Below, piece by piece: positions 28,950 through 37,877 of a DNA stretch of 64,000 nucleotides. The DNA is taken from the IMG/VR virus record IMGVR_UViG_3300001528_000425, positions 128,001 through 192,000 of that record, one strand, 5' to 3'. How positions within the stretch are numbered: the stretch's first letter is position 1; the number at the start of each line of letters is the position of its first letter. The notes beneath the pieces are model-generated. The model had not been told where the DNA came from. It saw only the letters and a program-made list of their open reading frames with translations, and searched no databases. Origin of the DNA: a virus. Lineage: Duplodnaviria; Caudoviricetes. The position numbers and the translations under genes are program-made.

Positions 28950-29804
28950 ATGAGTACTTCTGATAAACCGAATCGTGGGATCTATGTAGGGTTGTGCGGA
29001 GGAGGGTTCGCAGGTGTCGAATCTGCCATCGGTGCTTTGAAGGCCATGGATGAACTCGGTATCAAAGCCGACAAGATGGCAGGCGGATCGGCAGGCGCTC
29101 TGGTTGCCAGTCTATATGCCAGTTTCGATCTGAATGCCGAACGATTGGAACATCTGATCAAGACAGTGGATTCGGATACTTGGTTCAAGTTCAAACCTTG
29201 GCAACTGATCAAGTCGATCTTCGGAACCAGCAACTACTGTTACGATACTACTGGGTTATACCAGTTCTTGCAAGAGAACATGACTCCCAAGGCAACCGAG
29301 ATGGTTACAGTATCTGTGACTACTCTGCCCTGTTACGACAAAGAATTGCTTCCAGCTACTCCAGCACACACCTTGGCTTCCATGTCCATCCCGAAGGCTT
29401 GTCCTCCGGTACGATGGGATGGCAAACTCCATGCCGATGGCGGAGTTAAGGATCTTCTTCCAACACCAGACGGACATGAGATCGAAGAGTACGAACACAT
29501 CTATCTCGTTCTCTGCCCTGACACCAGTACCGGAGAAGTGAAAACGACTTGGAAGCTTCTCGGAGAACTGATCACTCTCCTGAATGCTGTGATGCAGCGT
29601 GAAGTAGACGAAATTCGTTCTACCTTCAAAACCTTTCCCAATGTGACAGTCATCGATCCTCCTGGAACGAGACTGTTCATCGATGGAGACAAGGATACCT
29701 TCTTATCAGGTGGATTACTCCAATGGTCGGATAACTTCGAACTGTTGGAGAGCACCTATCGTTACACCAAACACAAACTAACCACAGGAAAAGATGAACC
29801 GTGA
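28950..29804 (+). CDS. Patatin-like phospholipase
   Basis: CGGGFAG oxyanion loop, GGSAG nucleophile, ASMSIP, DGG. Confidence 0.9.
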   Translation: MSTSDKPNRGIYVGLCGGGFAGVESAIGALKAMDELGIKADKMAGGSAGALVASLYASFDLNAERLEHLIKTVDSDTWFKFKPWQLIKSIFGTSNYCYDTTGLYQFLQENMTPKATEMVTVSVTTLPCYDKELLPATPAHTLASMSIPKACPPVRWDGKLHADGGVKDLLPTPDGHEIEEYEHIYLVLCPDTSTGEVKTTWKLLGELITLLNAVMQREVDEIRSTFKTFPNVTVIDPPGTRLFIDGDKDTFLSGGLLQWSDNFELLESTYRYTKHKLTTGKDEP

Positions 29805-30239: not shown

Positions 30240-30278
30240 CTAAGTAACAGGGACGCGTTTGGCGTCCCTGTTACTTAG
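30240..30278. terminator. Bidirectional terminator hairpin
   Basis: 17-bp stem. Confidence 0.85.
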
Positions 30279-31844: not shown

Positions 31845-32954
31845 TCAGTTGATGATGCCGGATTTATCGATGTCTCCTTTGACTCCGGCGAATTTGGTTG
31901 CAATGTCGACAGCTTCTGCTTCGGCGGTATGACCGAACCGATCCGCCTTGGTGTTGAGGACATCGATCAGAGATTCACTGATCGGTGAACCGCAGATGGC
32001 GAGATAGTTGAGATCTTCCGACAGTCCGAGATACGTCACGTTGGTGAACATATCAGGAGCCGATCCTTCGTTGTTGATCACGAGTGCCGAGTGAACGATG
32101 CTGTCCGGATGGATGGAGATGAACTCTTCACCATTCTTGGTATTCTTGACGGGCTCGGGACTCTTCAGATCAACGATACCGAAAGACCACACTCCATTGC
32201 CGGCCAGTTTGATCAGGTCGGGGCGAAGGAAGTTCAGCCGGTCAGTGTAATCGAGTTCCGTCACCGTCTTGTTCAGGAACAGGTCGCAGATCTGCCGAAC
32301 GCGCAGAGCAATCGTGTTGTTGACGATGAATCGTCCGGTGCCGATGTTGCTGTAGATCATGGTCGGGATGTAGACGTTCTCCGTCTCGGCAGTGTGATAG
32401 AGGGTCCGCAGCGTGTTGATGCTGTTGACGCAGTCCATCTTGGAACATGCATCCACCACACCGATCGCGATGACGGCTTTCTTGCGCCGAGTCGCTTCCC
32501 GGATGATCATGGGACCGATCACCGAACCAGAGCCACCAGACATGCTGTAAATGATGATGTTGATGTCCTGGATATCGTCCATTACTCCACAGCGATCGAG
32601 CTTCGTCTGCATATCCTTGATCAAGATACCACGGTTCTTGCCAGCGCCGCTGTCGCCGAGGATGTAGGTTTGAACTCCGAGATCGTTCGTCTTGAGAGTT
32701 TCTGTATCGGCCGGAATAACCGGACCATCATGCCGGTCTGTCTCTTCACCAACCACAACCGCAGCCGGTTCAACCGGAGTCGCTCCAGCGAGTTTGGAGA
32801 TGTTGGACCGACTGGTGTCGATGGCGACGAGTTTGGGCTGCACGCTCCAGTTCTTGGTGATCTGAGGAGTGACATCTTTCATGTACTTGGCCAGTACGTT
32901 GATGCCACAGCCTCCGGCGGCGAACACGGTGATTTTGATTTGCTTTTCGTTCAT
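31845..32954 (-). CDS. phuZ: Phage tubulin PhuZ
   Basis: AGGCGIN, IDTS, GAGKNR, SMSGGSGS tubulin signature, LDYTD. Confidence 0.93.
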   Translation of the reverse strand: MNEKQIKITVFAAGGCGINVLAKYMKDVTPQITKNWSVQPKLVAIDTSRSNISKLAGATPVEPAAVVVGEETDRHDGPVIPADTETLKTNDLGVQTYILGDSGAGKNRGILIKDMQTKLDRCGVMDDIQDINIIIYSMSGGSGSVIGPMIIREATRRKKAVIAIGVVDACSKMDCVNSINTLRTLYHTAETENVYIPTMIYSNIGTGRFIVNNTIALRVRQICDLFLNKTVTELDYTDRLNFLRPDLIKLAGNGVWSFGIVDLKSPEPVKNTKNGEEFISIHPDSIVHSALVINNEGSAPDMFTNVTYLGLSEDLNYLAICGSPISESLIDVLNTKADRFGHTAEAEAVDIATKFAGVKGDIDKSGIIN

Positions 32955-32969
32955 TTCTTTCCTCGTGGG

Positions 32970-33452
32970 TTAGTTGGCATACGCCGGTTGAGTGAAATCG
33001 AATCCTTGCATCCGGATAGACGTATCGGTGGTTTCTCCGACTTCGATACCCGTATCCGAGTATTTGGCACAGAGAATCTCACCATTACGTACTGTCAACA
33101 GAAGCAGGTAATCTTCATTGATATCGTTCACCAGAAACTGATGACGGATCAGTTTCTCATGCTGAGCGGAAGGGAAAGGTTGGTCGTCTGGGATGGTCAT
33201 CCATTCGCCGAGGTATATGGTACGTCCTTGACTGCGGTTGAACTCCCGCTCAATGATGCGGTTAGCCTTCCAGGTACCACGGACGTGACCGAAGAGTCTT
33301 CGGATATCCCAGCGACTGGGTTCCGTGATCTGCAAGATGTAGACGTCACCCTTCCTCACTTGACCGAGCAGTATCCCTCCGGTAGCAACACGTTTCGATC
33401 CTTTGTACTTCAGCAATCGTTGTGTCACCTTTTGATGGATAAACACTCTCAT
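32970..33452 (-). CDS. JAB/MPN (Cap3-like) domain protein with degenerate active site
   Basis: TGGILLG, ITEPS..D.R, SQG..IYLGEW.T.P...P.PS. Confidence 0.8.
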   Translation of the reverse strand: MRVFIHQKVTQRLLKYKGSKRVATGGILLGQVRKGDVYILQITEPSRWDIRRLFGHVRGTWKANRIIEREFNRSQGRTIYLGEWMTIPDDQPFPSAQHEKLIRHQFLVNDINEDYLLLLTVRNGEILCAKYSDTGIEVGETTDTSIRMQGFDFTQPAYAN

Positions 33453-33469
33453 TCTGTTCTCCTTATCCC

Positions 33470-33943
33470 TTATTGGTGTTTTCCACAGGATGGCAGCTTT
33501 CTGTCATCCACGTGGAGATTAAGTTTAGCTGCACAATGCGGACAAATCGCTTTGGAGCATTGATGACAGGTAGTTGGTCGTACAGTCATGCCACCATGCC
33601 CAATACGTGACATGGTGAATTCCTGATCACATATACCACAAACATGAGTATCTTTACTTGCCGTTTGATCCGATGTATTCTTTTTGAAACTCATGCAATT
33701 CAAACAAGTTCCTTTCAGTGTTGATGGTTTAAAGAGTGAAATTTGCGGATAATCCAGGCATCTCCAACAGGTCCATCCACCACAACTGATACATCTTCCT
33801 CCTGAGAGATTCATCATCCAGAGAAAGATCCTTATTGGTAGGCTCCAAACCGTGATATGCGCTCCGCAAACGTGACATGTTTCAGTCTGACGATTCTTCT
33901 TTCCGAACAGACTCCTCCATAGTTGTTTCATTGGTTTCTCCAT
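33470..33943 (-). CDS. Multi-zinc-finger protein
   Basis: Seven CxxC pairs. Confidence 0.7.
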   Translation of the reverse strand: MEKPMKQLWRSLFGKKNRQTETCHVCGAHITVWSLPIRIFLWMMNLSGGRCISCGGWTCWRCLDYPQISLFKPSTLKGTCLNCMSFKKNTSDQTASKDTHVCGICDQEFTMSRIGHGGMTVRPTTCHQCSKAICPHCAAKLNLHVDDRKLPSCGKHQ

Positions 33944-37843: not shown

Positions 37844-37877
37844 CAGGTAGTAGGTGGGTCCTCCCACCTACTACCTG
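37844..37877 (-). terminator. Terminator hairpin
   Basis: 15-bp stem after the RNAP stop, T-run on the minus strand. Confidence 0.8.

Follow-up and report, generated by a model that had tools for sequence, protein, structure and literature searches.

A jumbo phage gene beside phuZ encodes a Cap3 homologue with replaced JAMM residues, a candidate decoy against type II CBASS

The closest described counterpart of the protein reported here is Cap3, the JAB/JAMM isopeptidase of type II CBASS, which acts on the CD-NTase and is known from V. cholerae and E. coli (PDB 9ild). The role of the Cap2/Cap3 cycle in this defence is disputed, the two proposals being priming by conjugation and activation by release. 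Overexpressed wild-type Cap3 abolished CBASS defence, and the catalytically dead Cap3 HTH101ATA did not counteract CBASS and left conjugates in place (Ledvina et al., bioRxiv 10.1101/2022.03.31.486616). In other work, cGAMP induction was found to need the activity of both Cap2 and Cap3 (Jenson et al., PMC10097602), a catalytic mutation of Cap3 restored phage growth in an E. coli CdnG system (Kranzusch-laboratory preprint, PMC12991175), and Cap3 was proposed to release the cyclase from PspA on infection (Kruger et al., PMC11153139).

The anti-CBASS proteins described so far either remove the cyclic nucleotide, by degrading or sequestering it, or attach to the cyclase or the effector; they include Acb1 (a nuclease), Acb2/Vs.4 (a cyclic-nucleotide sponge), Acb3 (a CD-NTase binder) and Gp15 (which acts on CapV). 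None is known to act against the Cap2/Cap3 conjugation cycle, and a search of the anti-CBASS literature found no described phage inhibitor of this layer; likewise, no description of a phage-encoded Cap3, either active or dead, was found in the Cap2/Cap3 and anti-CBASS literature. Viral mimicry of a host defence component is reported for a phage-encoded DarG-like antitoxin (bioRxiv 10.1101/2023.12.14.571748).

The gene considered here belongs to the virus record IMGVR_UViG_3300001528_000425, a complete genome of 235,559 bp (235.6 kb) with terminal repeats, which encodes the phage tubulin PhuZ (jumbo phage). The window is the whole stretch of DNA that was analysed, 64,000 nucleotides at positions 128,001 to 192,000 of the record, and all coordinates of the phage genes refer to it. 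The gene, termed pseudo-Cap3, is found in the following setting:

37844..37877, minus strand: strong terminator-like hairpin of 15 bp, upstream of the minus-strand block
33470..33943, minus strand: upstream gene for a 157-aa cysteine-rich (zinc-finger) protein with eight CxxC pairs
33453..33469, minus strand: 17-nt spacer between the zinc-finger gene and pseudo-Cap3, with an AAGGAG ribosome-binding site (sequence)
32970..33452, minus strand: pseudo-Cap3 gene, an intact ORF of 160 aa plus stop, encoding protein P0001
31845..32954, minus strand: downstream gene for the phage tubulin PhuZ (Pfam Tubulin, 1.1e-10; phrog_4733 'tubulin PhuZ', 1.1e-32)
30240..30278, minus strand: strong terminator-like hairpin of 17 bp, at which the minus-strand block with pseudo-Cap3 ends

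The AAGGAG ribosome-binding site lies 7 nt before the ATG of pseudo-Cap3, the PhuZ gene starts 15 nt past the pseudo-Cap3 stop, and no minus-strand terminator-like site was found between the two hairpins. A scan for sigma-70-type promoters returned 12 sites against 12.6 expected, which is the level of chance and tells nothing about a phage that brings RNA polymerases of its own. The product of the upstream gene gave FYVE/RING matches in Pfam, all of them below threshold, and no firm family was obtained for it from Pfam, PHROGs or the atlas search; a partial homologue (50 residues, 44% identical) is encoded before PhuZ in a related phage (L033:2280-2429). PhuZ itself is very isolated, with a best metagenomic relative that is 50% identical and no tblastn match at 1e-5 in 50,697 GenBank phages, so that the phage represents a poorly sampled branch of nucleus-forming phages. 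On the plus strand, a 490-aa open frame (32091-33563) runs antisense to PhuZ and pseudo-Cap3; it has no family match and is a shadow ORF that could mislead gene callers. Further along the same window, positions 28950-29804 (plus strand) encode a patatin-like phospholipase of 284 aa in which both the GGSAG serine motif and the DGG aspartate motif are intact. This patatin was considered as a captured CapV and rejected, having neither BLASTP similarity to CapV nor a PADLOC match.

Profile and structure searches assigned P0001 to Cap3. Pfam Prok-JAB gave no match to P0001 itself; its three close homologues (P0002-P0004) all match PF14464, with E values of 1e-11 to 1e-13. The PADLOC CBASS JAB model PDLC00896 matches P0001 at 1.9e-26, and the best NCBIfam family is NF050170, 'CD-NTase/cGAS isopeptidase Cap3' (2.4e-17, 63.6 bits); this score is below the equivalog cut-off of 200 bits, as is that of the genuine operon Cap3 P0003 (97.7). 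In a sequence search of the PDB the sole match was the Cap3 chain 9ild_A (4.5e-10). The AlphaFold (AF2) model, based on 90 homologues, has a pLDDT of 92 and a pTM of 0.87, and its top Foldseek match is 9ild, 'Complex structure of Cap3 and CD-NTase' (E 1.4e-11, TM 0.74/0.77), with archaeal JAMM enzymes and MPN subunits of the proteasome lid, the COP9 signalosome and eIF3 next in rank. An earlier note on this DNA, made from the letters alone, had recognised the scaffold of prokaryotic JAB peptidases in the gene and suggested a Foldseek comparison with Cap3. Both points held: the motifs ATGGILLG, ITEPSRWDIR, YLGEWMTIP and PFPSAQH are present, and the model has the JAB/MPN fold with a Cap3 chain as its nearest structure. 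P0001 matches none of the described anti-CBASS families in Pfam (Acb3 model PF25187 included) or PHROGs, and BFVD contains only generic viral JAB proteins with 7-16% identity to it.

The search for relatives covered 5.8 billion proteins and returned just three, P0002-P0004, with 45-49% identity over 95% of the length. P0003 is encoded in operons of patatin, CD-NTase, ThiF-E1 and JAB genes on several contigs, the JAB gene standing immediately behind Cap2, and P0004 in an operon of the same layout, which was the only one recovered by a metagenome scan for further relatives. The cyclase of the sister operon is a cGAMP synthase by NCBIfam NF041078 (260 bits vs a cut-off of 150), and PADLOC classes its patatin as a CBASS phospholipase effector (7e-93). 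P0002 (L032:1657-2154) follows directly behind a long gene of Cap2 length, with an overlap of 4 bp. This cellular Cap3 has Ala at the general-base Glu position, as does P0001, and retains HxH, Ser and Asp. Among species-representative genomes the nearest matches are Bacteroidota (Tenacibaculum, Croceitalea, Maribacter, Dysgonomonas and others), and the gene order CD-NTase, Cap2, Cap3 was found in every locus of this set that extends far enough upstream.

On a quick maximum-likelihood tree (IQ-TREE), P0001 clusters with the operon Cap3 proteins P0002-P0004 (SH-aLRT 99), at the end of a long terminal branch (1.49 vs 0.11-0.36). By sequence and phylogeny P0001 belongs to the Cap3 family, and on these grounds it is judged to be a true descendant of Cap3 and not a generic JAB protein. 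As to the partner, which the earlier note had given as either a CD-NTase or a Ubl, the relatives in operons and the best Cap3 models favour the CBASS side, and the Bil side finds no counterpart in the 12 near-relative loci examined, all 12 of which have CD-NTase and Cap2 and are without a Ubl. With all near relatives located in CD-NTase/Cap2/Cap3 operons, the target is likely to be CBASS and not Bil.

The catalytic site of Cap3 is nearly invariant in the family. Over 154 aligned members the JAMM columns hold E in 146, H in 152, H in 151, S in 153 and D in 150, and the Glu, His, His and Asp are conserved at 96-99% among the 150 relatives. P0001 has A23, M85, I87, S95 and H98 at these columns, of which only the Ser is kept, and it lacks the motif E...HxH...S..D. 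The corresponding positions, together with that of a preserved segment discussed below, are as follows:

33384..33386, minus strand: codon GCT of Ala23, at the position of the JAMM general-base Glu (codon read on the DNA)
33300..33326, minus strand: residues 43-51, TEPSRWDIR, at the topological position of JAMM insert-1 (9/9 identical to sister-clade cellular Cap3; clade-specific)
33192..33200, minus strand: codons ATG-ACC-ATC of Met85-Thr86-Ile87, in place of the zinc-binding H-x-H (codons read on the DNA; Met85 at 33198-33200, Ile87 at 33192-33194)
33159..33170, minus strand: Ser95 (kept) to His98, where His98 stands for the zinc-binding Asp of S-x-x-D (family alignment and codons; Ser95 at 33168-33170, His98 at 33159-33161)

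Zinc binding is not possible for Met and Ile, and P0001, as judged from its residues, is a protein that cannot cleave as a JAMM peptidase. The replacement of all four catalytic residues in an intact ORF, as the earlier note had it, is seen both in the alignment of the 154 members and in the codons on the DNA. P0001 is thus like Cap3 of type II CBASS in fold, length, family by descent and the blocks of the groove, but differs in that the JAMM Glu/His/His/Asp are all replaced and in that it stands alone in a phage without CD-NTase or Cap2: homologues of CD-NTase, Cap2 and CapV are absent from the window, and the 235.6-kb genome has no ThiF or SMODS match. A JAB fold without zinc ligands and with a non-catalytic role is also the mark of the inactive MPN subunits (Rpn8, CSN6, eIF3f/h, Abraxas), which rank just below Cap3 in the fold search and, at 10-20% identity to P0001, show no kinship beyond the fold. 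These subunits pair with an active MPN partner in large complexes, whereas no second JAB gene was found in the phage genome.

Preservation of the remainder of the protein was assessed over 24 conserved columns, defined as those conserved at 80% or more in the 150 outgroup members, 4 of which are catalytic. All four catalytic columns are changed in P0001 vs 3 of the 20 others (F56H, I120T and G122R), 17 of the 20 being kept, and the hypergeometric probability that all four catalytic columns would be among the seven changes is 35/10626 = 0.0033. When the catalytic columns are left out, the sister-clade consensus is kept in P0001 at 76% of positions in the most conserved third, 50% in the middle third and 34% in the most variable third, and retention tracks family conservation (Mann-Whitney p 9e-5). 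Unconstrained drift would give flat retention, and this gradient therefore speaks for constraint. A further result is that three blocks of 9-10 residues framing the active site, GGILLGQVRK, TEPSRWDIR and GRTIYLGEW, are 100% identical to cellular Cap3 (alignment A1). The ratio dN/dS is not measurable on the P0001 lineage, which is a singleton (one phage in two assemblies, the second contig, L026, being identical in DNA), and is not usable for P0001 vs P0003, where synonymous sites are saturated (pS 0.78).

The second of these blocks, TEPSRWDIR, sits between strand 3 and helix 2 in the secondary structure of the model. In solved deubiquitinase complexes (AMSH-LP, Rpn11), the insert-1 hairpin pairs with the ubiquitin tail. 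In the Cap3 family, the segment at this position covaries with the C-terminus of the CD-NTase: TEPSRWDIR is found with ...KANARSANA, and [F/V]PSxxDK with ...SDNSRSA (L002, L027, L017-L024). The covariation suggests a readable specificity code between the Cap3 segment and the CD-NTase tail. We infer that the segment may serve as a specificity element and that the phage protein would still 'expect' a KANARSANA-like tail.

Loss of the catalytic site is not confined to P0001. Among 150 listed representatives, one other protein, P0086, is without the whole site (T/F/T/S/Y at the five motif columns), and P0159, 56% identical to P0086, is also without the Glu and both His ligands. This dead lineage is found at the following places:

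L005:1086-1616, phage-like contig: P0086/P0159 dead lineage
L029:786-1349, phage-like contig: P0086/P0159 dead lineage
L030:15-578, phage-like contig: P0086/P0159 dead lineage
L031:14-577, phage-like contig: P0086/P0159 dead lineage

Both proteins match the CBASS JAB model at about 1e-12, and their neighbours are a phage-type acetyltransferase, a DUF3307 membrane protein (phrog_2470) and mobile HNH endonucleases. Comparison of P0086 with P0159 gave a dN of 0.31 and a dS of 1.35, and the ratio of about 0.23 indicates that a protein incapable of acting as a JAMM peptidase is under purifying selection. In the tree they fall at another place than P0001, albeit with a long branch, and they form a second dead lineage, probably independent of P0001. 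Other phages have lone Cap3-like genes that retain HxH. Those seen in clear phage contexts in IMG/VR lie before terminase and portal genes (L009:4465-4866 and L012:8001-8366), between primase and helicase genes (L013:7866-8444) and beside a Zot-like gene (L007:698-1252), and no recognisable CD-NTase or Cap2 was found near any of them. From sequence and context, these HxH-bearing proteins may be enzymatic anti-CBASS deconjugases.

The pseudo-Cap3 gene has a GC content of 49.5%, compared with 48% for the phage and 36-37% for the nearest CBASS operons. This full amelioration implies that the capture is old and that the gene has resided in the phage for a long time without deletion. In the nearest related phage fragment that was found (L033), in which PhuZ has 50% identity and the downstream gene is also shared, a zinc-finger remnant and a 48-aa ORF precede PhuZ, and a Cap3-like gene is absent from this place; its absence there marks the gene as accessory. 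No close relatives were found in 50,697 GenBank phages (megablast and tblastn, with the region, P0001, PhuZ, P0159 and P0003 as queries) or in IMG/VR (scans with alignment A1 and with PhuZ).

By alignment and model, P0001 has lost its active site selectively and is maintained as a folded protein, which fits selection for a non-catalytic role. The reading preferred here, with a probability of about 0.42, is that P0001 would trap the CD-NTase by its C-terminal tail without cleavage, so that the Cap2/Cap3 cycle would be blocked. A Cap3 gene of a type II CBASS operon (capV/cGAMP-synthase/cap2/cap3), probably from a Bacteroidota-like host, would have been acquired in the distant past and, once its zinc site and general base had been replaced (A23, M85, I87, H98), would have been retained by the phage as an accessory gene. 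With the JAB core and the groove flanks of a highly tail-specific enzyme preserved, the simplest role would be to bind either the CD-NTase tail or the isopeptide junction stoichiometrically. As a substrate trap without turnover, P0001 would bind this tail in the host CD-NTase, whether or not the cyclase is conjugated, and shield it so that priming by Cap2 and/or release or maturation by host Cap3 would be prevented. The outcome would be damped cGAMP signalling and damped CapV-type killing, against which the phage nucleus would give no protection.

Published data on Cap3 bear on this trap in two ways. The dead HTH101ATA mutant was without effect, which means that a Cap3 does not turn into an inhibitor simply by losing catalysis, and an active copy would look like the more effective weapon. 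The natural protein would have to exceed that mutant in affinity or stability; speculatively, the Met and Ile that occupy the vacated metal site may contribute to this. On the other side, in hosts that need Cap3 activity for signalling, CBASS would be disarmed by a competitor that keeps Cap3 away from the junction. When P0001 was co-folded with the cGAMP synthase of the sister operon, the score was 0.58 vs 0.00 for the best of 3 controls, which the method rates as weak support; a like complex has already been solved, and the value may reflect prior exposure of the method to it. The runs agree in at least 86% of contacts, with a partner pLDDT of at least 77, and the co-fold shows likeness rather than binding.

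The proposals of the earlier note on selection can be judged from these results. Neutral decay, which it had named as the outcome that would speak against it, is at odds with substitutions that shun conserved columns. Its proposal of selection for binding without cleavage stands in so far as targeted loss, constraint and a second dead lineage fit a non-catalytic role, and is weakened by the published dead Cap3 mutant, which was no inhibitor. Its suggestion that phage homologues be examined for the dead site met with a divided answer, the site being dead in P0086/P0159 and the HxH being retained in the lone phage Cap3-like genes.

The tight transcription unit with PhuZ, with its gap of 15 nt, and the common use of inactive MPN domains as scaffolds leave some room for a re-purposed peptide-tail-binding or scaffold module in a phage process apart from defence, for instance one acting on a phage protein such as PhuZ. 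This is nevertheless unlikely, because the nearest related phage has PhuZ without the Cap3-like gene, which is therefore not part of the PhuZ machinery, and because exact retention of clade-specific, substrate-side Cap3 residues would be unexpected after a change of ligand. P0001 might also oppose CBASS through its enzymes, with the dead Cap3 taking the place of Cap3 on Cap2 or pairing with host Cap3 and so poisoning the conjugation machinery. Some Cap2 carry a fused C-terminal JAB (forms in L014-L016), and P0001 matches the PADLOC E1-E2 models in their C-terminal part, which implies that the two modules operate close to each other; the inactive subunits CSN6, Rpn8 and eIF3f are high among its fold matches, which recalls the Rpn8-Rpn11 and CSN6-CSN5 pairs. 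However, the strongest conservation surrounds the substrate groove, we know of no Cap2:Cap3 or Cap3:Cap3 complex, and such poisoning is distinctly unlikely.

A captured Cap3 that is inactive, drifting and without function would agree with a singleton on a long branch from which all catalytic residues are gone. Such a remnant is improbable given the intact ORF with a good ribosome-binding site, the confident predicted fold, the avoidance of conserved columns by substitutions (p 9e-5), the ameliorated GC content and the parallel dead lineage under purifying selection. It is quite improbable that the decoy is directed against another ubiquitin-like defence, such as Bil, 6A-MBL or a similar E1/E2/JAB system; related JAB peptidases occur in such systems and the NCBIfam 6A-MBL cap2_3 model gives a weak match (1.1e-5), but the near relatives and the best models are all CBASS Cap3. 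Continued peptidase activity through a non-canonical site, for example D89, D90 and H98, is hardly credible: acidic residues and a His are left near the old site, but the site has lost its general-base Glu and both His ligands, and we know of no JAMM enzyme that does without these.

The non-cleaving trap would share its purpose with Acb1, Acb2/Vs.4, Acb3 and Gp15, and its proposed action is like that of Acb3, in which the cyclase is targeted by protein-protein contact. P0001 is not homologous to any of these proteins and would act on the Cap2/Cap3 ubiquitin-like layer. With the DarG-like mimic it has in common that a defence component is borrowed against its own system; the mimic is kept active, while P0001 is catalytically inert by its residues. 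As a candidate viral decoy derived from a host immune component, P0001 is firmly established as an object, while its function is a proposal.

Taken together, it is proposed tentatively, with somewhat less than even confidence, that phages may have captured and disabled Cap3 at least twice, giving a tail-specific CD-NTase clamp that would be the first class of inhibitor at the ubiquitin-like layer of CBASS instead of the nucleotide signal, and that other phages may use a lone active Cap3 to strip conjugates. If this is true, the natural dead Cap3 would be a ready-made probe of the disputed cycle, since a block of Cap2, a block of Cap3 or stabilised conjugates would show which step matters. It would also be a clear case, in a virus of bacteria, of a pseudo-enzyme decoy built from a host immune component. 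A need for such a tool would be expected in jumbo phages that form a nucleus, since this structure is bypassed by the membrane-attacking effectors of CBASS.
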